Shown: one piece after another, positions 7,703 through 31,407 of the stretch | How the letters are laid out: every line of letters starts with the position of its first letter | Numbering within the stretch: the first letter of the stretch is position 1 | From: Hyperthermus butylicus DSM 5456 | Lineage (GTDB): Archaea > Thermoproteota > Thermoprotei_A > Sulfolobales > Pyrodictiaceae | Reading direction: 5' to 3' | NCBI RefSeq assembly: GCF_000015145.1 | Contig: NC_008818.1 | Location: 990,001 to 1,022,000 of the forward strand | Length of the DNA stretch: 32,000 nt | Notes under the pieces: generated by a model | What the model was told of the DNA's origin: nothing | Database searches by the model: none | The model's input: only the letters and a program-made list of their open reading frames with translations | Program-made: the position numbers and the translations under genes

Positions 7703-9061
7703 CTAGCTACTACATGGCTTGTAGATATAGCCTTGAAGCACTACGCCAATGCTGTAGTCCACAAAGTATGTATTGTCGTCGCCTATGAGTGCTATGCTTG
7801 TAGCTACTACCGGTAGTGGGGGGTCTGTGCGTATGTTGGCGATGCCTGCATCAGTGAGGTATGGGTTCTGGGTGTACCCCATTACTACTAGGATTTTGTC
7901 TGGTGGCGCAGTAATGTTGAACTGTACAAATACTCTGTCGTTTCTCTCATAGTATAGCACTATACCGTTGAGTAGTCGTGCTCGTAAAACTAGGAGGCGG
8001 TAGGGGAGGCTTCGATCCTCCATATTATTGTAGGCGTAGTGTATTGATAGTGTTACATCGTCAATTGTCGTATTTACTTTGAGGATACTGTATTTCTCTG
8101 CTTGGCCTAGCTCTATCCATGTGCCGTTGGGGAATACTAGCCATGCGAGCAGCTTGGACTTGAGAGTATAGTATATTGTCACCACGGCTCCTAGGCCTGG
8201 GATGTACACTATATCGTCTACGAGATAGTATTTGAACCACCAGTATCTGTTGCAAGCGTTGGTGAGGGGTGTAGTGTTTACTCCGAGGCGCTCCAGCATT
8301 GTGAGGGGCTTTGGTGTTGCCCAGCCTGTAGGGTTATTGTATATGAGGCCGCTGGCGCATATGTTGTACTCGTCTCCGTCTATTGTGCCGCTGTTGTAGG
8401 CGTCGTAGTATGCTGCAGCTAGTAGAGTGTTGAGCTTCCCCCCGGGTATGTAGCCCCGGTAGGCTTCTGGATCACTCGTTATATTGTAGACCACTGGGTC
8501 CAGGTACCAACTACAATTTGTCATGTTTGAATATATGGATGTGAGGTTTAGGCAGAGTTGTGGCTCCAAGAGTTCGGTGGCGCGTACGATCCTGCCGCTA
8601 AGACAGAGCCCTGCTTTGGTCGGGTCAATCTCGTAACTGTAAAGCCAAAGAGACTCCCCACGGACAAGTATTACGACCGGCTCATTGCATGGCAGCTCCA
8701 GCAGGGCGGTATTATTCACTACGGGGGCCCTAGCGATAGGCCTGCGGCTTGCTACGCTGTAGGCTATGACCTCAGAGGCCTTGTGGCCCATAGCTATGGG
8801 TTTTATGGTAAGCCTTACTGGGAGCACATTGTTGATGCATTCATCTGAGAGGGGAACTAGCTCCATGCGTGGCGGTACTGCTGCAGCGGCGGCGTGCACG
8901 GCAGCTCTCACGGTAGTCTTGGTAGCGGAGACCACGTATGCAGCTATTAGCGTAAGCGAGAGCGTAGATATGAGCGCGACTATAAGCGCTGATACTACGC
9001 CTCCAACACCCTTCAGCTGCAAGCCTCTATTACACCCAGTAAGGGGGCCTCTTCCAGGCAC
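7703..9061 (-). CDS. secreted glycoprotein with prepilin-like (class III) signal peptide
   Basis: 452-aa ORF. The N-terminus '..RGLQLKG|VGGVVSALIVALISTLSLTLIAAYVV' fits the archaeal [KR]G-cleavage motif followed by ~25 hydrophobic residues. An alternative TTG start at 9022 would give 'MQLKG|V..'. It carries 9 N-x-S/T sequons and 9 Cys, has no other TM segment, and is beta-rich. Confidence 0.6.
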   Translation of the reverse strand: MPGRGPLTGCNRGLQLKGVGGVVSALIVALISTLSLTLIAAYVVSATKTTVRAAVHAAAAAVPPRMELVPLSDECINNVLPVRLTIKPIAMGHKASEVIAYSVASRRPIARAPVVNNTALLELPCNEPVVILVRGESLWLYSYEIDPTKAGLCLSGRIVRATELLEPQLCLNLTSIYSNMTNCSWYLDPVVYNITSDPEAYRGYIPGGKLNTLLAAAYYDAYNSGTIDGDEYNICASGLIYNNPTGWATPKPLTMLERLGVNTTPLTNACNRYWWFKYYLVDDIVYIPGLGAVVTIYYTLKSKLLAWLVFPNGTWIELGQAEKYSILKVNTTIDDVTLSIHYAYNNMEDRSLPYRLLVLRARLLNGIVLYYERNDRVFVQFNITAPPDKILVVMGYTQNPYLTDAGIANIRTDPPLPVVATSIALIGDDNTYFVDYSIGVVLQGYIYKPCSS

Positions 9062-10367: not shown

Positions 10368-13300
10368 ATGAGTAGGCTAGCCCTAAACATACTCACAATA
10401 CTCCTCATAACACTCCCAGTCATAGCTCCAATGCTACCAGTAGCAAAGGCACAGACGGTATACGCTGAGATAATAAACTGCACCAACTGTGTAAGTGTGA
10501 TTAACAACACCTATGCAGTGGTTACAATCGGCAGCGAGATAACGTTCCTAATACATGACGACGACGGCCTAACCTACAACTGGGAGAACATCACAGCCAA
10601 CATAACAGTCAACGGTGTACTTAACACTGTAAACGTAGGCTTCTACGGGATCTACGGCGACTACGTGGGTAAGCTAGTAGTCGAGCAGGTTGGCGGCCTC
10701 ATCAAGGTAAGGTACTACTACTATGACAACGCAACTGACAGCTTCGTCGACATGGGTTACCTCAACGGTACAATCACCGCTACCAACCAGACAATAGTCA
10801 TAGAGTACAAGGGTGCCAAGATAACCCTAGTGTACCAGCAACCACTAGCAACCTACACCCTAGAGATCTACGGCCGCCTACACGAAGGCAAGTACTGGCT
10901 ACCAAGGCTAGGCGATGACGGCGTAAACAACATAACAGCACTATACAACGCCCTTGGCGAGTGGAGGATAAAGGCCGACCAGCCAGTATTCACGCCCGGC
11001 AACAACTACACTGTAACACTCTACGCTAGGCTTGTAGGTGAGACAACACCACTATTAACACAGGACGTAGTATTCACGGCTAGTGACGAGTACACACTAG
11101 TACCAGCCAACGCCACCGAGGCAGAAAAGATCAAGAGCTTCCTACTAAATCTAAGCAGCGCAGTCAACCCATGGTACATTGAGGGTATAGACTTCGCCAA
11201 CCCAACAATGATGGGCGACATGCTAAAGCTAAAGGCCGAGATACAGGGCTTCGGAGAGACAGCCGAGGTAGATGCAGTAATATTCGTCAGCATAGCTAAG
11301 ATAGAAATAGACAGTGCTGGCTTCAACAACCCAGAGGTAACCATAACAGTATATGACGCTGACACCAACCTAGACACAACCGCTGCAGAGGCAACACCAT
11401 TCACATTCGACATACTAGTGAATGGCGTACCAGTAATGCAGCTACAGCTACAAGAGACTGGTGCTAACACTGGCGTATTCACAGCAACAACAAACATGTT
11501 CGACCTATACAGCTTCGGTGTCATCAGTGAGACCGACAACGTGATAGACTACAACTTCACAGAGGTACGTGTAGACGATCCATCAGCAAAAGTGATATGC
11601 TTCAGAGGTGGCAGCTTCACAGTAACCTACTACGCAGCAGAATTCAGCGTCAAGGAGGAGCAGCTAACGCTAAGGAACATCATACAGTGCTGTCCACCAC
11701 TAAAGCTAACACTGCAGATAATAGATGAGGATCTCAACCTGCCAAACCAGGAGATAGTAGCAATAGCAACACTCAATGCTGGCGACTCGCTAACCAACGT
11801 TGTTGCCTACTACTACTACAACGACCAGATAACGACTGTACCAGCACTGAACTTCTCAATGTACATGGCTGACGAGGAGGGCAACCTCTACGACCTAACA
11901 GTACGCGAGCAATTCACCATCTACTTCATCAAGGTAGCGCCTGGCGTAGTTGAAGCTAGCATAGATCTATCAAAGATCGACTGGCAGGCTACAAACGCTG
12001 CAGCTTCAGCAGCTGGCCACCAGCTAACAAAGATAGTGATAGTATACAGTGACAGGTTCAACCCGAACCTAACAATAGTCAACAAGCAGGCAGAGGTAAC
12101 ACTACAGAACGTAACCATACAGGTTGACCGTGACACCCTACCAATATCATTCAGGATCGTAAGCAGCAACAACCCACCAAGGATAGGCCTTGGTAGCTGT
12201 CCAGCATGTGCAGCCTGGGAGGTTGACACCTGGTCTGATGTATCAGCCCAGACAGTACACATAACAATCTACGACGATGGGCACAACGAGGACTGCTGTA
12301 GTGTTGACGTGATAACACCAGCAGAGATAGAGCTAACACTCTACAAGGTAGTTGACGGCCAGACAGTAGTATTCGGCAGCGGCACTGGCAGCCTAAGCAT
12401 CGACCTATACGCCATAAACGCCACTGGCCACTGGGTAGACTATGGCACATGCTACATCGAGGTAAGCGACCTGGTAGAGACTGGCTTCAACACTGGTGTA
12501 TTCACCGGCACCCTAAGCATCTACTCAGAGATCGACGTAGACCTTGACGGCACACCTGATATAACAATAGCAGGCTGTCCATCACTATGGCTGCAGGGTG
12601 CAACACTAGAGATTAAGTACACAAGCCCGGCAGTAGGCTTCGCAGTACAGAAGATAACATTCGCAACCTACACAGCCAAGCTACAGCTAAACACACACGT
12701 AGTACACTATGGCGACGAGCTAGTGATAACAGTCGAGGACCCAGATGCTAACCTTGACAGCACAATCAACGAGGCTATCAAGGCAACACTAAGCTTCTAC
12801 TGCCCACTAACAAGGACAACTGAGGAGTACACAGTCTACCTGAAAGAGACCGGCACCAACACTGGCGTGTTCGTAGGCAGCATCACCATCGACTCCAGGC
12901 TAGCAGGTCCATGCGTAGACCTCTACTGTGCAGAGCTAACAGTAACCTACGTGGACAGAACACCATTCGACGAGAACACACTGAACTACGCCGAGCAGCT
13001 ATTAAAGCAGAACCTATCAACATATGGTGTCAACGGCTTAATGATATTCAGCGAGTGTGACTGTAACAAGGTACTAATAACAGATACGATAGTAGAGCAG
13101 CCGGTCAAGGGCAGTGTGGAGGTCTACTACAAGTTCCCAGCAGGGCTAGAACAGCTAGCACCATGGAACAAGGTTTGGCAGAAGGTAACCAACGATGTAG
13201 TACCAGCCTATGAGGGCATTGAGCTCAACATAACAGTCTACGACCCTGACAGGAACAGACTCTACGATGTGGTAGACAACATACCGTACAGCAAGATAGC

Positions 13301-14474
13301 AGTAACAATTGAGGGCCTCAACGCGCCACCACTAATACTAGAGCAGCTAGTTGGCAGCGGCTACCTAACAGAGACTGGCGCCAACACCGGCACGTTCAGC
13401 ACTGTCATAACGCTAGGTGACCTGCTGGCAGGCTTCCAGAGGCTTGGCTACAACGTAGACCTAACAAGCGTAATTGGCAAGAAGATAGCGTTCATCTACT
13501 ATGATGACCAGACAGCATGCCAGGCAGCAATATGTGGCAGCTACACTGGCGGCTCCACCAGCGTATGGATCAAACCAGTAGACATTGAGGGCGGCGTCAC
13601 TGTAATCAATGCTGTAACTGGTAAGCCGAACCCAGACAACATCTACAACTGTGGCTGTACAATAGGCAGTTGTCCATCAGCAACTGGCGATATAATAGAC
13701 ATCATCGTCAACGACGTATCGCTGCTAAAGTACGTGCAGGCTGGTGGTATACGGCTGGTAGGCAACCTAACACTAAGGCTGCTCTACAACAATACTGAGC
13801 AGCCACTAACATACGGCGGTCTCGAGACACTAAGCTACATCGGCTATGAGAACCTAACACTGCCAGGCAGCAATGTAGTCATACCAGTACCAAAGTTCGC
13901 TGCAGAGAACGTACTGATCTACTGCAGCGTACCACTGGCAACAGCCGGCCAGCCATACATAGTAGCACCAGTAGGCAGCAGGGTCAAAATAATCTACCAC
14001 GACCCAGCAATAGAGGCTGGTACTGCTAAGGACGTAGAAGTAACAATTGGCATTGGCGTACCAGGCCTACTACCGACACCAGAACAGTCAGTACAGTTCG
14101 TTGAGCAGCAGCTAGAGGTTAGGGTATTCAATGGCACAGCATTCGTAGAGACGACAACAGTCAAGCGCGGCCAGCCAGTATCGATCTACGTGCCGCTCAA
14201 CTACGATGCACTAACGGTGAGGACATACACTGGTGCCAACGTATTCACAGTGCTACTAGTAATCAAGGATGCAGAGGGCAAGGTAGCACTATTCACGTAC
14301 ACCTACATTGACGTCAGCAAGATGGAGAACGAGGTAAGCTTCGGCATACCAGCAGAGTTCACCAAGCTACTACCAGCGGGCACATACACTGTAGAGCTAT
14401 ACGCTGTAACCAGCCTAGACGCACTAATGCCACTATCACCGGTACTATCATTCCAGCTAACAATAACCGAGTAA
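10368..14474 (+). CDS. large secreted surface glycoprotein, candidate S-layer lattice protein (SlaA-like architecture)
   Basis: 1368-aa ORF. GAGGTG lies 9 nt upstream of the ATG. It has a Sec signal 'MSRLALNILTILLITLPVIAPMLPVAKA|QT' and no TM anchor. It is beta-rich, with ~22 N-x-S/T sequons and four DxDxN...ETGxNTGxF modules. Codon bias is extremely A-ending. Confidence 0.85.
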   Translation: MSRLALNILTILLITLPVIAPMLPVAKAQTVYAEIINCTNCVSVINNTYAVVTIGSEITFLIHDDDGLTYNWENITANITVNGVLNTVNVGFYGIYGDYVGKLVVEQVGGLIKVRYYYYDNATDSFVDMGYLNGTITATNQTIVIEYKGAKITLVYQQPLATYTLEIYGRLHEGKYWLPRLGDDGVNNITALYNALGEWRIKADQPVFTPGNNYTVTLYARLVGETTPLLTQDVVFTASDEYTLVPANATEAEKIKSFLLNLSSAVNPWYIEGIDFANPTMMGDMLKLKAEIQGFGETAEVDAVIFVSIAKIEIDSAGFNNPEVTITVYDADTNLDTTAAEATPFTFDILVNGVPVMQLQLQETGANTGVFTATTNMFDLYSFGVISETDNVIDYNFTEVRVDDPSAKVICFRGGSFTVTYYAAEFSVKEEQLTLRNIIQCCPPLKLTLQIIDEDLNLPNQEIVAIATLNAGDSLTNVVAYYYYNDQITTVPALNFSMYMADEEGNLYDLTVREQFTIYFIKVAPGVVEASIDLSKIDWQATNAAASAAGHQLTKIVIVYSDRFNPNLTIVNKQAEVTLQNVTIQVDRDTLPISFRIVSSNNPPRIGLGSCPACAAWEVDTWSDVSAQTVHITIYDDGHNEDCCSVDVITPAEIELTLYKVVDGQTVVFGSGTGSLSIDLYAINATGHWVDYGTCYIEVSDLVETGFNTGVFTGTLSIYSEIDVDLDGTPDITIAGCPSLWLQGATLEIKYTSPAVGFAVQKITFATYTAKLQLNTHVVHYGDELVITVEDPDANLDSTINEAIKATLSFYCPLTRTTEEYTVYLKETGTNTGVFVGSITIDSRLAGPCVDLYCAELTVTYVDRTPFDENTLNYAEQLLKQNLSTYGVNGLMIFSECDCNKVLITDTIVEQPVKGSVEVYYKFPAGLEQLAPWNKVWQKVTNDVVPAYEGIELNITVYDPDRNRLYDVVDNIPYSKIAVTIEGLNAPPLILEQLVGSGYLTETGANTGTFSTVITLGDLLAGFQRLGYNVDLTSVIGKKIAFIYYDDQTACQAAICGSYTGGSTSVWIKPVDIEGGVTVINAVTGKPNPDNIYNCGCTIGSCPSATGDIIDIIVNDVSLLKYVQAGGIRLVGNLTLRLLYNNTEQPLTYGGLETLSYIGYENLTLPGSNVVIPVPKFAAENVLIYCSVPLATAGQPYIVAPVGSRVKIIYHDPAIEAGTAKDVEVTIGIGVPGLLPTPEQSVQFVEQQLEVRVFNGTAFVETTTVKRGQPVSIYVPLNYDALTVRTYTGANVFTVLLVIKDAEGKVALFTYTYIDVSKMENEVSFGIPAEFTKLLPAGTYTVELYAVTSLDALMPLSPVLSFQLTITE
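11349..11480 (+). repeat. protein-level module 1: 'VYDADTNLD' ... 'ETGANTGVF'
   Basis: In-frame motif pair separated by 35 codons. Confidence 0.6.
12267..12503 (+). repeat. protein-level module 2: 'IYDDGHNED' ... 'ETGFNTGVF'
   Basis: In-frame motif pair separated by 70 codons, so this module carries an insertion. Confidence 0.55.
12732..12872 (+). repeat. protein-level module 3: 'VEDPDANLD' ... 'ETGTNTGVF'
   Basis: In-frame motif pair separated by 38 codons. Confidence 0.6.
13236..13397 (+). repeat. protein-level module 4: 'VYDPDRN' ... 'ETGANTGTF'
   Basis: In-frame motif pair separated by 45 codons. Confidence 0.6.
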
Positions 14475-24888: not shown

Positions 24889-25722
24889 GTGTGTGGCCTG
24901 GCGGAGCTTAAAGCTGTGGAGGTACACGTACGGGGCGTTGAGGGGCTCGAATACGTGCTTGCTGCTGGCCAGCGTGTAGCCGACCTTGCGCTTTCGAGGC
25001 GCAGGCTATACTACATCCTCCTCCGAGCACGTGGAGATGGTGTAGTCCTTGGCCTCTACGGTAGCCTTGCTGACGAGGCGGGTGTTGTGGGCATCTACCG
25101 CCGTATAACGGGTGGCAGGCCTGCCTACGTTGAGCACGACACCTACTACCTTGCCGTAGCGTTGCCCGGTGCTAGGAAGCTGGAGAGCCTAGCCCCGAAG
25201 GCCCTAGAGCTTGAAAGGTGTAGTAAAGGCGTAGTAGGCTTCACCCTCCTCGGTGAGACGGGTTTCCTAGAACTCTTCGCGGATAGTGACCCTCTCCAAT
25301 GCCTCCTCGAGGTATTCAATGCTAGGCCAGGCGGCAGGCTGAGCCTAAGCCCATCGGTTCTCGCCGAGACCGCACAGCTGTACGCTTCGCCCAGCTGGAG
25401 GCTCTACAAGTACAACCCGGCAACAGCCGAGGCGGCTGCATACCGGGGCAGCTACTGGGTAAAGGCTAGCATTGAGGTAACAGATGGCTACGTAACCGGG
25501 GTCTGGCTTAGCGGCGTCTTCTACGCTGCACCACCTATGGAGCCCTTCAGCATACTGGAAACCATCCGTGGTACAAGGTTTGACGAGCTTGTGCTGAGTA
25601 ATGCTGAGCTGGCGGTAGACTACCGTGTCGAGCTGTGGGGCGTAACCCGCGACGACTTCAAGAACGTGCTCCGAAGCCTCCACGAGAAGGCTGGGGAGAA
25701 GTATTTCACTGTGCCCGACTAG
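24889..25722 (+). CDS. lipoate-protein ligase (LplA/BPL) family-like protein, divergent
   Basis: 277-aa ORF with a GTG start. 'YRRITGGRPAYVEHDTYYLAVALPG' resembles the 'RR.SGGGAVYHD.GNL.YS' core. The C-terminus 'ASPSWRLYK..YWVKASIEVTDGYVTGVWLSGVFYAAPP' resembles the LplA C-domain ('GDFF' region). I could not locate the catalytic Lys motif. Confidence 0.45.
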   Translation: MCGLAELKAVEVHVRGVEGLEYVLAAGQRVADLALSRRRLYYILLRARGDGVVLGLYGSLADEAGVVGIYRRITGGRPAYVEHDTYYLAVALPGARKLESLAPKALELERCSKGVVGFTLLGETGFLELFADSDPLQCLLEVFNARPGGRLSLSPSVLAETAQLYASPSWRLYKYNPATAEAAAYRGSYWVKASIEVTDGYVTGVWLSGVFYAAPPMEPFSILETIRGTRFDELVLSNAELAVDYRVELWGVTRDDFKNVLRSLHEKAGEKYFTVPD

Positions 25723-27904: not shown

Positions 27905-29134
27905 CTATCCTGGGGAGTTAGATGCTTGCGGCGTATTTGCTCTCGAGGGTTCCTTGCTATGCTGCCTCCTTACAGCTTGTACGAGATGGGTAACCTTTAC
28001 TTTTCCATAGAGCTTTGCTAGTAGGACCCCGTGGCGGAGCACGGTGTAGCACTTTATGCATGGCGTGACTATTTCCCTCGCCTTGCAGCCTTTGCAGAGA
28101 TTCCTAATCCTCCACTCGTAAATCCTATTGCGTAGTGTTGCGAGTGGCTGCTCTCTCAGATAGTTTAAGCCTCCACCACCGCCACAGCACAGCGTGTAGG
28201 GAGGCTTATCCCTTGGCGGCTTAGCATGGGTAAGCGCCTTCACCGAGGGGTACGACTCTCTCTCGAAACGTGCAAAACCACAGCTCGGAAAGAGCAGGCG
28301 GTCCTTGTTATTCTCCCCTCTACCCCCTCCACTCATCCTTATATGCTGGTGTATCAGCTCGTAGATGTTCACGGCTTCCATGTTGCTGGTAAGCCAGGAG
28401 TAGTGCTTGGCTAGTAGCAGGAGTTTATGGTCAGCACCGCAGCCCGAAAGCACTATACCCCTAACACCTAGTTCCTCTGCGGTATTGATCACGTTTGCCA
28501 GAGCATTTAGCGCGACATCCGGCCTTGCAGCATCGAAGGCTGCGTTGCCGCCTAGATCGAGCGCCTTAGTGGATACAGCAATACTGTACCCCGCTTTCTT
28601 CAGAACTGTGAGAGCGTCCTCAAGAATATCCGGGTATATTGTTGTCTCGAAGGGGGATGGAATGTAGAGGTAGTCTGCTGGCTCGTCCACGGGGACCCCT
28701 ACCTTCTCGGCAATGCTGAGGAGAAGCTTCTTCGGCGCCTCTGGGTTGGGTGTAAAGCTGTGGCCCCGTACTATATTGCGAGCTATCTCCTGCAGGCTCT
28801 GCGGCTGTTTCCCCTCAATGCTGAGCTTTATCCTTGCTGCTAGCACGACCCTCCAAACCTCAATACCATAGGGGCATAGGATTGTGCATGCTCCACACAT
28901 TGTGCATGTGTAGATGGTCTCGATATCCTCGCTTGTCGGCGAGCCCTTCACAAGCACATGATATGCAGCCCTTAGACGCCTAGGCGGGGAATACCGTGCA
29001 GCACCGAGCGCTCTGTAGGAGACGCAGCCTGGGGTGCAGAGCAGGCAGCCTATGCACGCCCTGTGGTACTCTTCGGCTAGCATGCGCGCTTCGTCAATAA
29101 GCTCCCTAGCCACCCTCCCATAGCCTATATTCAT
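27905..29134 (-). CDS. Fe-S oxidoreductase with two [4Fe-4S] motifs and CCG domains (HdrD/DsrK/GlpC-like)
   Basis: 409-aa ORF with 'CIGCLLCTPGC' and 'CTMCGACTILCP' (both CX2CX2CX3C). It also has 'LSGCGADHK' and 'YTLCCGGGGGLNYL...CKGC...CIKC', the CCG-type cysteine-rich domains. Confidence 0.8.
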   Translation of the reverse strand: MNIGYGRVARELIDEARMLAEEYHRACIGCLLCTPGCVSYRALGAARYSPPRRLRAAYHVLVKGSPTSEDIETIYTCTMCGACTILCPYGIEVWRVVLAARIKLSIEGKQPQSLQEIARNIVRGHSFTPNPEAPKKLLLSIAEKVGVPVDEPADYLYIPSPFETTIYPDILEDALTVLKKAGYSIAVSTKALDLGGNAAFDAARPDVALNALANVINTAEELGVRGIVLSGCGADHKLLLLAKHYSWLTSNMEAVNIYELIHQHIRMSGGGRGENNKDRLLFPSCGFARFERESYPSVKALTHAKPPRDKPPYTLCCGGGGGLNYLREQPLATLRNRIYEWRIRNLCKGCKAREIVTPCIKCYTVLRHGVLLAKLYGKVKVTHLVQAVRRQHSKEPSRANTPQASNSPG

Positions 29135-29203
29135 CTCTACCCCTTGCAGTCTCTACAACGACGTGTAGCATATAGGGCATTGTTCAAAAACTTCAATAGT
29201 AAC

Positions 29204-29213
29204 CTATATAAAG
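29204..29213. promoter_or_regulatory. TATA box (CTATATAAAG) in the 116-bp divergent intergenic region
   Basis: Lies between the CCG Fe-S gene (-) and the Trx-fold/TusA-like/cytochrome-b operon (+), ~40 nt upstream of TTG 29251. A second 'CCTATATG' (reverse orientation, ~29170) could serve the minus gene. Confidence 0.45.
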
Positions 29214-29250
29214 TAACATACTAGGCGCAATTTCTCACCAGGGGGAATTA

Positions 29251-29895
29251 TTGATCTCCAATGGGGACATGTTGCACAAGACTATCACGGATATACTGCT
29301 CAGCTCCATAGGCCTACCAACACTTAGCAGGGCTAGAAAGCTTGTCGGCGAGATAGAGGAGAGAACCGAGGTAATAATCGGCCTCTCCAGGGGCTCCAAG
29401 CTCTCCGAGGATGGGCTAGCATACGTGAAGAGCTTGGTAGGCGAAAACGAGCACGTAAGGATAATACCGGTTTACGTCAAGGAGTGGCCTAGCAATAGGC
29501 CAGACCCGCTGATAATCATCGGTGGGAGGCTCGGTGGACGATACAAGTTCTACGGCATACCCACCGAGATCCTGGCGTCAGCATTCCTCACAGCTATCGC
29601 AGCCGCGGGGGGCGCCTGGAGGCCAAAGAGCTGCCGGGGCTTTTAAACGGCCTCGGGAAAACTCATACTGTACGTTGTACCTGGTCTACCCTGCGCCAAG
29701 GCTATGTACTATGTGATCCAAGTCATCTACTGCAGTGAGAAGGCCGAGGTGGAGATAGTAAATCTTAAGACGATGCTGCTTAGGGGAATACAGCTGCCAG
29801 TCAAGCAGGTACCAGCATTTGTCACGCCAAAGGGTACACTATACCAAGGCCTACCCGGTGATGCACAGGGTGTTGCAAGGCTATGGGAGTCCTAG
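29251..29895 (+). pseudogene. two-unit thioredoxin-fold protein (PDO/glutaredoxin-like), interrupted and lacking CxxC sites
   Basis: ORFs 29251-29646 and 29704-29895 are in the same frame, separated by TAA at 29644-29646. The joined product parallels Pyrococcus PDO: 'YKFYGIPTEILASAFLTAI' ~ 'RYFGLPAGHEFAAFLEDI', 'LILYVVPGLPCAKAM' ~ 'ILVFVTPTCPYCPLAV', 'VPAFVTPKGTLYQGLP' ~ 'VPKIVI..FEGAYP'. The active-site positions read SKLS and GLPC instead of CxxC. Confidence 0.5.
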
Positions 29896-29973
29896 AACTA
29901 GCGTTTATCCCGGAAAGCCCCGGGGGTAAGTGTATGAGTCCGGGAGGGCCACCGTGAATAAGGGGTGGTCGAT

Positions 29974-30213
29974 GTGGCGGAGCGTGTGCTCGACCTGAGA
30001 GCATATACCGCCCTGTGCGGCGATTATAGCGTACATTTACTCGGCAAGCTCGAGCAGATGAGTAGTGGTGAGAAGCTCAAAGTATATGTCGCTAAGAGCA
30101 GTGCTGGCCTTCTAAAGGAGTCTGTGAAAGCCATAACCTCTGCTGGCCTAGCTGAACTCGCTGGAGAGGGGGAGGAGGGAGACGCCTACTACGTCATCCT
30201 AGTGAAGAGGTAG
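29974..30213 (+). CDS. TusA/SirA-like small protein (non-canonical Cys motif)
   Basis: 'VLDLRAYTALCGDYSVHLLGKLEQMSSGEKLKVYV....YYVILVKR' parallels TusA 'LD.RG..CP.P....K.L..+..GE.L.V..D....Y...I.K'. 'CGDY' stands where 'CPxP' is expected. GTG 29974 follows AGGGGTGG by 6 nt (the ORF opens at GTG 29965). Confidence 0.45.
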   Translation: MAERVLDLRAYTALCGDYSVHLLGKLEQMSSGEKLKVYVAKSSAGLLKESVKAITSAGLAELAGEGEEGDAYYVILVKR

Positions 30214-30229
30214 CGGGGGGTGGGGCCGC

Positions 30230-30820
30230 TTGGCCCTCCTCCTACCCCTAAGTGCAGGGTTTTACGTATTTGCCGGAACGCTTGTTCTGGTGCTGGCGGC
30301 GGGCATAGCTGCCACAGTGAGGAGCAGAACGGTTCTCGGCATTACTCCTCAGGCTAGGGTTCTCCGTTCCGCCTATGCCTCGCTGCTCCTGGGGAGCACT
30401 AGGTCCTTTGTAGCCGCTATTGCTAGCTTCGTGTTCCACCTGGGCCTAGTGGTTATCGCTGTTCTCCACCTAACAATGCTTGGATACCTTGGCGCTAGAC
30501 TCTACGTACTAGACGCGGGGGCTTTCCAGGCGATCATATACTGGCTCCGCGCGGTAGCAAAGACTGTAGCATTGTCGGGGACCATACTCCTACTCCTACA
30601 TGTAGAACAGATGCTGCGGGGCTTCAGGCCAGCACTGGGCAGCATTACTGGCACTCTAATCCTCACAACGGCAGCCCTAGCCATAGCCACGGGGTATGCA
30701 TCGCTAAATACTCACATAGCCCTGGGGCTCCTAGGAGCAGCATATGCCGCCTACACGGTGCTCAGCAGCCACATAACCAGAGGCTCGAAGCTCCTCGCCC
30801 AGAGGATCCTCCGCACATAA
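30230..30820 (+). CDS. integral membrane protein, NarI/DsrM/HdrE-like di-heme cytochrome b candidate
   Basis: 196 aa with ~5 TM helices. The TTG start is 16 nt after the TusA-like stop and is preceded by GGGGGTGGGG. 'FHLGLVVIAVLH' (H70-x9-H80) has the same spacing as NarI 'FHIGILGIFVGH' (H56/H66). A second pair, 'THIALG...SSH' (H162/H181), sits in the last TM region (NarI H187/H205). Confidence 0.5.
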   Translation: MALLLPLSAGFYVFAGTLVLVLAAGIAATVRSRTVLGITPQARVLRSAYASLLLGSTRSFVAAIASFVFHLGLVVIAVLHLTMLGYLGARLYVLDAGAFQAIIYWLRAVAKTVALSGTILLLLHVEQMLRGFRPALGSITGTLILTTAALAIATGYASLNTHIALGLLGAAYAAYTVLSSHITRGSKLLAQRILRT

Positions 30821-31257
30821 AAGCCTCAAGCCATAAGCCAGCTCTCCAGCACGATAGACAGTATAGACGCGCCTTTCCACAGACTATAGGACCACTAGGT
30901 ACGATGCTAAGCCGTGCTGTGGGGCACAGAGGCACGTAAGCATAGCGCAGCGGGTTGATCATCGCTGCTGCCGGGAGGATATGGATACTGGTGCCATAGC
31001 GACAAATATGGCGGCGCGGCAGAGAGGAGCCTAACCTGGAACGAGTATAGAGGTCCACATGCCGCGTATATCCCTCGTGTACGATACTGCTTGCGCTACC
31101 TCACCACCACGATCTCTGAGCGTGTGCTAATGGGAACCAGGGCTATGGCGATGCCTGGGCCCGGCGAGACCCCTGGAAGCGGTGGTTGTAGGGCTCGGGA
31201 AGCGTGAAACCATGGTTCCTGCATGCCTCGACAATGGATGGCCTGGTAAGGCATAAA

Positions 31258-31275
31258 TGTGTCTCCGGAGACACA
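31258..31275. repeat. 18-bp perfect palindrome TGTGTCTCC|GGAGACACA
   Basis: Read directly: the 9+9 nt arms are exact reverse complements with no spacer. Confidence 0.9.
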
Positions 31276-31407
31276 CTCATGCTCAGCTCTAACGTGCAGC
31301 ACTCGTCAGGCTCCAACGAGCCCTAGGCCTACTCATAGACGATATTGCCGGGCTGTTCTACCCCCTCTACCAGGCTGCCCGAGAGGCTACTCTACCCCAA
31401 GGACAGA

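Follow-up and report, generated by a model that had tools for sequence, protein, structure and literature searches.

A DsrK-like iron-sulfur protein encoded beside a TusA-like protein and a candidate di-haem membrane subunit in Hyperthermus butylicus and related Desulfurococcales

We analyzed a 32,000-nucleotide stretch of the genome of Hyperthermus butylicus DSM 5456 (contig NC_008818.1, positions 990,001 to 1,022,000 of the forward strand; hereafter the window, with coordinates counted from its first letter) and identified at 27905-30820 a divergent locus that encodes a DsrK/HdrD-type iron-sulfur protein with a CCG domain, a small TusA-like protein and a 196-amino acid (aa) membrane protein with four conserved histidines. 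These three genes are the invariable core of a gene cluster that recurs in related genomes. We propose, with a probability of about 0.5, that they encode a lineage-restricted, three-component analogue of DsrMK and HdrDE that acts on TusA-bound sulfur in the Pyrodictiaceae and related Desulfurococcales. The DsrK homology of the catalytic subunit, the linkage of the genes and the invariance of the His and Cys residues are established. The principle of the system is that of DsrMK and HdrDE; what sets it apart from the described systems is the membrane partner and the carrier, in a lineage that has neither Dsr nor methanogenesis. No description of this gene cluster was found in the literature searched. 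The disposal of electrons onto sulfur by obligately sulfur-dependent hyperthermophiles is partly understood, and has been assigned in such organisms to molybdopterin sulfur reductases and an NADPH:sulfur oxidoreductase (PMC2678158).

The DsrK-like protein and its conserved gene neighborhood

The gene for the iron-sulfur protein lies on the minus strand (27905-29134) and encodes 409 aa when counted from an ATG; the database copy (P0001) starts at a GTG at 29113 and has 402 aa. A preliminary description of the locus had reported two CX2CX2CX3C clusters in this open reading frame (ORF), and both are present (C27/30/33/37 and C77/80/83/87). In Pfam, the protein matched Fer4_8 (E 5e-11) and CCG, the latter with 20.6 bits, exactly the gathering score. 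The description had also spoken of CCG domains in the plural, which holds for one of the two repeats: one CCG motif, C...CCGGGGG...CxxC (here SC...CCGGGGG...PCIKC), is complete, whereas the first repeat is degenerate and keeps a single invariant Cys ('SGCGADHK'). In the family alignment, which holds 17 close relatives at 38-61% identity, all eight ferredoxin Cys are invariant, as are the motifs GHSF, PSPFETT and DLGGNA, one Cys in 'CGAD.K' and the full CCG motif (C278, C309, C310, G311, C352 and C355 in P0001 numbering). A two-CCG enzyme of the GlcF or GlpC type was also considered and was rejected, because the Cys ligands are gone from the first CCG repeat.

The top NCBIfam match of the protein was DsrK (NF045796, E 7e-12), with 44.7 bits against an equivalog cutoff of 400 bits, followed by HmcF (3e-11) and TmcB (3e-10), which were also far below their equivalog cutoffs. 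A scan of genome contigs with the CCG alignment returned mostly proteobacterial dsr loci and only four close loci; 46 DsrK proteins from the dsr loci served as a control alignment. Alignment of the CCG family to these proteins with hhalign gave a probability of 99.8% (E 5.8e-28) over 359 columns, a homology along the full length that upholds the HdrD/DsrK-type assignment made in the preliminary description. The alignment superposed the CCG motifs and matched the lone Cys ('sgCGAD') with that of 'GECGH' in DsrK; the flanking residues differ, and the family has S/T-x-CGAD in place of GECGH. The N-terminal domain matched HdrC chains in a profile search of the PDB (2e-09). One CCG motif combined with a lone, catalytic Cys that remains of the missing second cluster site (T/GECGH) is the signature of DsrK, HmcF and TmcB, whereas HdrD and HdrB have two CCG motifs (PMC10861901). 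Judged by its sequence, the H. butylicus protein shows the cofactor signature of DsrK, with a pair of [4Fe-4S] sites, a single CCG motif and the lone Cys, and is a DsrK homologue, not a DsrK orthologue.

DsrMK belongs to DsrMKJOP, the menaquinol:DsrC-trisulfide oxidoreductase of Archaeoglobus fulgidus, Desulfovibrio and Allochromatium. DsrK pairs with the dihaem cytochrome b DsrM, and in the A. fulgidus complex the electrons of menadiol reach the DsrC trisulfide by way of the haems b of DsrM and the noncubane cluster of DsrK; Hmc and Tmc are transmembrane complexes of similar architecture (PMC10861901). Besides the homologous catalytic subunit and its cluster signature, the locus shares with DsrMK a small membrane partner with one His pair in transmembrane helix (TM) 2 (x9) and another in TM5 (about x17), and a small Cys-bearing sulfur-carrier protein encoded alongside. 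It differs in that the membrane protein is not detectably a DsrM homologue, the TusA-like carrier has one Cys where DsrC has two, dsrAB, dsrC and dsrJOP are missing from the loci, and the catalytic gene is divergent from the membrane gene. HdrDE, the membrane-bound heterodisulfide reductase of Methanosarcina, likewise joins a cytochrome b anchor, which in our case is a candidate, to a cytoplasmic fusion of an HdrC-like ferredoxin and an HdrB-like CCG protein. However, both CCG motifs of HdrD are complete, which gives it two noncubane clusters (PMC10861901), whereas the CCG protein described here has one complete motif; moreover, we propose that it acts on a thiol or sulfur bound to a protein and not on CoM-S-S-CoB, and the organisms are not methanogens. 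From HmcEF and TmcBC of sulfate reducers, the source of the next-best NCBIfam matches, the locus differs by the absence of periplasmic multihaem cytochrome c subunits. Finally, the sHdr-TusA-DsrE3 clusters of Metallosphaera cuprina and Hyphomicrobium combine soluble HdrABC-like complexes with DsrE and lipoate-binding proteins and serve sulfur oxidation; in them, too, the gene of a TusA-family carrier stands beside those of CCG-type Hdr-like proteins (PMC4175335, PMC6067878). Unlike these clusters, our loci encode one HdrD/DsrK-type protein next to a membrane partner and contain no DsrE or LbpA gene.

The gene neighborhoods of relatives were compared by taking flanks of up to 7 kb around the CCG gene and matching their ORFs, which gave eight informative loci (L001, from Pyrodictium occultum, and L003, L083, L084, L085, L087, L005 and L006). 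In all eight, over a range of CCG protein identity from 57% down to 38%, the genes for the TusA-like protein and the four-His membrane protein adjoin the CCG gene on the opposite strand, and the synteny raised in the preliminary description thus extends to every informative relative. Four further co-locations are suggested by matches from separate searches that fall on contigs of equal length. The spacing between the TusA-like and membrane genes in the relatives varies from a 22-nt gap to an 11-nt overlap. A gene for a PDO-like protein sits between the CCG and TusA-like genes in six of the loci, but not in L005 and L006. The invariable core is, therefore, composed of the CCG, TusA-like and membrane genes, and these are exactly the three that are intact in the H. 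butylicus window, with every family-invariant residue kept. Orthologues of all the ORFs of the locus recur in this order elsewhere, which makes them more than chance reading frames. No dsrAB or dsrC genes were seen in the relatives' flanks of up to 7 kb, the rest of each genome lying outside the search.

Membrane protein, TusA-like carrier and PDO-like gene

The membrane protein of the core (30230-30820, plus strand) is read from a TTG start, has five predicted TM helices and is our candidate for a di-haem b subunit. Its histidines are at positions 70, 80, 124, 162 and 181, of which the preliminary description had listed all but 124. A word-indexed search with the family alignment recovered four proteins, and an exhaustive HMMER search of 1.84 billion representative proteins confirmed the small size of the family with only 6 members, none of them named. 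In two alignments (8 and 7 sequences, at 18-33% identity to the window copy), H70, H80, H162 and H181 are invariant in every family member seen and fall within predicted TM helices, so the conservation of the four His anticipated by the preliminary description was confirmed. Besides them, only one or two Leu are invariant, and the family has no conserved Cys. The spacing is H70-x9-H80 in TM2 and H162-x16-18-H181 in TM5. An AlphaFold2 model built from seven sequences (predicted local distance difference test, pLDDT, 77.5; predicted template modeling score, pTM, 0.65) has helices at 4-31, 40-53, 57-87, 96-129, 136-153 and 159-195, and places H70 and H80 in the second TM helix and H162 and H181 in the last one. 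An earlier model from three sequences was poor (pLDDT 56), and a fold search with it was meaningless. Clusters of Arg and Lys occur in the loop 32-58, at 130-133 and in the C-terminal tail. By the positive-inside rule, these charges suggest an N-out/C-in topology, which would therefore turn H80 and H162 outward and H70 and H181 to the cytoplasm, with one His of each pair near each face.

This arrangement recalls that of two families of di-haem subunits. The DsrM proteins of 48 dsr loci have the conserved pairs H78-x9-H88 and H191-x17-H209. The haem ligands of NarI are H56/H66 and H187/H205. In a forced alignment to a NarI sequence with its ligands at these positions, all four His of the membrane protein were collinear with them, and the motifs FH(I/L)G(I/L) and HxxLG were common to both proteins. 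In nitrate reductase A, the di-haem b subunit NarI (PF02665) also has five TM helices and an N-out/C-in orientation, as predicted for the membrane protein, and carries its His pairs in TM2 and TM5. The four-His pattern is thus that of NarI and DsrM; beyond this collinear motif, profile and fold comparisons showed no homology. We take a role as a di-haem anchor of the NarI/DsrM type to be plausible but do not assign the protein to that family; if it binds haem, it would represent either a convergent solution or an extremely diverged NarI branch.

Two side observations concern the same protein. Its C-terminal tail, R-x-L-(R/E/K)-(V/T/A/I)-COOH, is conserved in the window (30779-30817) and in the orthologues, with the Leu invariant, and may be a docking motif for a cytoplasmic partner. 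A shorter version of the protein (121-135 aa as called) that starts at the H-x9-H helix was found in L006 (6600-7007) and in P0084, so the first TM helix may be dispensable or the gene start may have been miscalled.

The TusA-like gene (29965-30213, plus strand) encodes 82 aa with a single Cys (C18) and the invariant motif DL...CGD..H; the 'LCGDY' stretch pointed out previously is present. Invariant in the family are D10, L11, C18, G19, D20, H24, G35 and G61. For the label of TusA-like given in the preliminary description there are sequence hints from the family, in which the Pfam model TusA matched 5 of 9 orthologues (best 1.4e-05) and the related DUF2249 matched 2; the window copy itself had no match. 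One orthologue had as its only PDB sequence matches TM0983 (1JDQ, E 0.21) and YedF (1JE3, E 1.2), and the family Cys aligned on the CPxP active-site Cys of these proteins; a PDB profile search with the family alignment returned nothing significant. The best reading is a TusA-like fold with an altered active-site motif (CGD), an assignment made at the level of the family because the window copy is below significance.

The PDO-like gene, which the preliminary description had presented as coding for a two-unit protein, is split in the window by an in-frame TAA (29644-29646). Its N-terminal 131 codons run from 29251 to the stop at 29646 on the plus strand, as delimited by the ORF list and by a tblastn alignment of the P. 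occultum orthologue (211 aa), which continues in one frame through the stop (29272-29886, E 1e-44). The remainder (29647-29895, plus strand) stays in the same frame, holds the 'YVVPGLPC' Cys and the 'VPAF' motif and matches the C-terminal half of the L083 orthologue (E 5e-28). In the relatives, the protein is intact (196-232 aa) and has Glu, Gly or Ser at this position, which lies in the linker. Given the one-frame alignment and the residues of the relatives, the TAA is either a point nonsense change or an error of sequencing, and no frameshift is involved. Recoding at the TAA was rejected, given the in-frame alignment of both flanks, the Glu, Gly or Ser of the relatives and the location of the first downstream start (ATG, GTG or TTG) at 29704, after the conserved 'PC' Cys motif. 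The thioredoxin fold attributed to the protein also went without statistical support. Pfam had no match among 13 members of the family, and a PDB profile search with their alignment found nothing significant, the best match being the Methanocaldococcus jannaschii thioredoxin 1FO5 (E 0.45; in hhalign, probability 2.8% and P 0.017). The family lacks a CXXC motif; it conserves the 'PC' Cys and a 'VP' motif, with a second Cys 13-23 residues upstream nearly throughout (P0096 is a possible exception). Because it is truncated in H. butylicus and absent from L005 and L006, we regard the PDO-like gene as accessory.

Proposed mechanism and alternative readings

In the mechanism we propose, the 196-aa protein would be a membrane anchor with two b-type haems, the outer one held by H80 and H162 and the cytoplasmic one by H70 and H181, and this anchor would trade electrons with the redox pool of the membrane. 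In the cytoplasm, the DsrK-like protein would pass electrons over two [4Fe-4S] clusters to one noncubane [4Fe-4S] cluster on the CCG motif, with help from the lone CGAD Cys, a role that has been proposed for the Cys of GECGH in DsrK. The substrate would be sulfur on the single Cys of the TusA-like protein, either as a persulfide or polysulfide or in a mixed di- or trisulfide that this Cys forms with another thiol, for instance that of the PDO-like protein where present. In sulfur-dependent anaerobes, the direction would likely be reduction with release of H2S, and the module would then be a membrane-coupled sink that faces the cytoplasm and takes up sulfane sulfur. A pathway of haem biosynthesis is present in H. 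butylicus, which relies on sulfur reduction (PMC2678158). If the proposal is true, it adds a membrane-coupled route that operates on protein-bound sulfur and places the partnership of cytochrome b and CCG protein, known from methanogens and sulfate reducers, in sulfur reducers without either pathway. Further, the three partner families, which are nameless in the protein collection searched, would gain concrete, testable functions. A bolder version holds that the 196-aa protein founds a new family of di-haem cytochromes, which reached the NarI-type four-His geometry independently or kept it past recognition, and that it forms with the DsrK-like enzyme a membrane-coupled TusA-persulfide reductase and a new route of S0 respiration in the Pyrodictiaceae. 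We put this version forward tentatively, as one that is more probably wrong than right. It would provide a cytoplasm-facing route independent of the molybdopterin sulfur and polysulfide reductases and carry the principle of DsrMK and HdrDE into organisms that have neither Dsr nor methanogenesis.

Several results, given here with the rival explanations on which they bear, weigh against the DsrMK/HdrDE-like reading. Haem binding, quinone use and the association of the proteins are putative. The preliminary description had called the membrane protein a NarI/DsrM-like cytochrome b, and membership of that family was not sustained: at E<=1, none of 8 members matched PF02665 or any other Pfam model, a PDB profile search with the alignment returned nothing significant and no NarI, and hhalign gave a probability of 2% against DsrM, from a local match on the H-x9-H helix only (P about 0.02), and 0.4% against NarI, whereas the DsrM-versus-NarI control scored 93.9%. 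In short, the membrane protein showed no detectable homology to NarI, DsrM or HdrE. A Foldseek search of the PDB with the moderately confident model also had nothing significant (best E 0.65, all TM-scores <0.5), and NarI was outside the best 50 matches. In favor of the reading, the highest probability (0.72) went to cytochrome b561 (TMq 0.47) and the transmembrane domain of NOX5, both of them four-His di-haem proteins. As for the carrier, the window copy had no Pfam match at E<=1, and the family has C-G-D-(Y/P/L) where the CPxP motif would be. The loci also showed no gene for DsrC, DsrE or a rhodanese. The lack of detectable homology to any haem protein family and the Foldseek result would suit a membrane protein that is not a cytochrome, whose four His bind another metal or which has a structural or transport role, while the DsrK-like protein uses soluble carriers. 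TusA-family proteins do partner membrane transporters of sulfur compounds, as in YeeE/TusA, and the membrane protein could, for instance, deliver such a compound to the TusA-like protein. Such a protein would, however, have to account for two His pairs on two helices, with one His of each near each face and the asymmetric 9/~17 spacing of NarI and DsrM, and, unlike YeeE-type transporters, it has no conserved Cys. Further, one-CCG proteins of the DsrK type sit in membrane complexes (DsrMKJOP, Hmc, Tmc), in which DsrK pairs with DsrM (PMC10861901). We consider the non-haem explanation quite unlikely.

The continuation of the operon in relatives also counts against sulfane sulfur as the substrate. 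In L001, L003, L083, L084 and L085, which represent four distinct lineages given the close relationship of L003 and L083, the membrane gene is followed on the same strand by genes for a membrane-anchored exported protein with a CPHC motif and for a membrane protein of ~205-226 aa with 'NPC' and 'LLPCSGGP' motifs (L001 3086-4302; L083 3860-5270; L084 4198-5364; L085 4106-5334). Sub-threshold Pfam matches (Glutaredoxin 0.0038 and Thioredoxin_2 0.046 for the CPHC protein; DsbD_TM 0.16 for the membrane protein) hint weakly at a thioredoxin-like and a CcdA/DsbD-like pair. Their presence in four lineages would therefore favor thiol-disulfide exchange over sulfane sulfur chemistry. The locus could then work as a transmembrane thiol-disulfide relay, in which the DsrK-like enzyme, together with the haem protein, adjusts the redox state of two Cys proteins of the cytoplasm, PDO-like and TusA-like, and these feed or drain the CcdA/DsbD-like protein and the exported CPHC protein for extracytoplasmic folding or cytochrome c maturation, H. 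butylicus having lost the export half. Pyrodictium species do contain c-type cytochromes (PMC4429474). Yet the core persists where the pair is missing (the window, L087 and L006; none was seen on the short contig L005), and the thioredoxin-like and CcdA-like labels come from motifs and sub-threshold matches. A CXXC motif is missing from the PDO-like protein, the TusA family consists of sulfur carriers and not of dithiol reductants, and the use of quinol to reduce a thioredoxin-type disulfide would be energetically unfavorable. We judge the relay unlikely. A more skeptical possibility is that the locus is a decaying, functionless remnant in H. butylicus. Three of the six ancestral plus-strand genes are lost or broken here, a further point against the DsrMK/HdrDE-like reading, and the locus may be decaying: the PDO-like gene has its nonsense codon, and where relatives have the thioredoxin-like and CcdA-like genes, the window has ~500 bp without an ORF (30821-31330) and without an Rfam match. 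A tblastn search of the window with the proteins of four relatives found no thioredoxin-like or CcdA-like remnant. The coding density of H. butylicus is low (83%), and at least one essential gene is known to be frameshifted (PMC2678158). However, none of the three core ORFs (CCG, TusA-like and membrane) is disrupted, all family-invariant residues are kept, and the TAA is possibly a sequencing error. L005 and L006 are naturally without the PDO-like gene, and L087 and L006 without the thioredoxin/CcdA-like pair, so the reduced gene set is a viable configuration. Decay is, in our view, the least probable of these explanations, and very unlikely.

Locus layout and other features of the window

The CCG gene and the plus-strand operon are separated by a divergent intergenic region of 116 bp (29135-29250) that, on direct reading of the sequence, contains the A/T-rich, TATA-like boxes noted in the preliminary description. 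One box, TATATAAA, is at 29205-29212, on the side of the plus-strand operon; the second, TATAT, is at 29170-29174 and is read on the minus strand, toward the CCG gene. Both are putative promoter elements. Also as described before, the TusA-like and membrane genes are separated by a 16-nt spacer on the plus strand (30214-30229, cGGGGGGTGGGGccgc) with a G-rich run that resembles a Shine-Dalgarno element, and the two genes may be translationally coupled. At E<=1, no Pfam or NCBIfam model was matched by any plus-strand product of the locus as it stands in the window, and Rfam and tRNA scans of the window returned nothing. Downstream of the locus, an ORF for a membrane protein, in frame 3, starts at about 31400 and is cut by the end of the window. 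In two of the relatives, a second gene with Fer4 and CCG domains (HdrD-like, 467-472 aa) lies ~5 kb from the module (L001 1-1233; L083 1-1383). In P. occultum and in the closest Hyperthermus-like metagenome-assembled genome, this HdrD-like gene adjoins YdjM and short-chain dehydrogenase genes.

The remainder of the window reflects peptide fermentation, with genes for 2-oxoacid:ferredoxin oxidoreductase, pyruvate kinase, a subtilase, ADP-forming acyl-CoA synthetase, PfpI and aldehyde:ferredoxin oxidoreductase. A 277-aa ORF on the plus strand (24889-25722) had no Pfam match; its ~70 C-terminal residues are weakly similar to LplB, the small subunit of lipoate-protein ligase (NCBIfam 2.8e-04, 21 bits against a cutoff of 65 bits). 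Lipoate-binding proteins accompany sHdr sulfur-oxidation systems, which makes this ORF of possible interest. Two further ORFs, one of 1368 aa on the plus strand (10368-14474) and one of 452 aa on the minus strand (7703-9061), had no Pfam match at E<=0.001. They adjoin genes for a coiled-coil protein with a CarboxypepD_reg domain and for a 1420-aa subtilase, and this neighborhood suggests that the 1368-aa and 452-aa proteins may be located at the cell surface.

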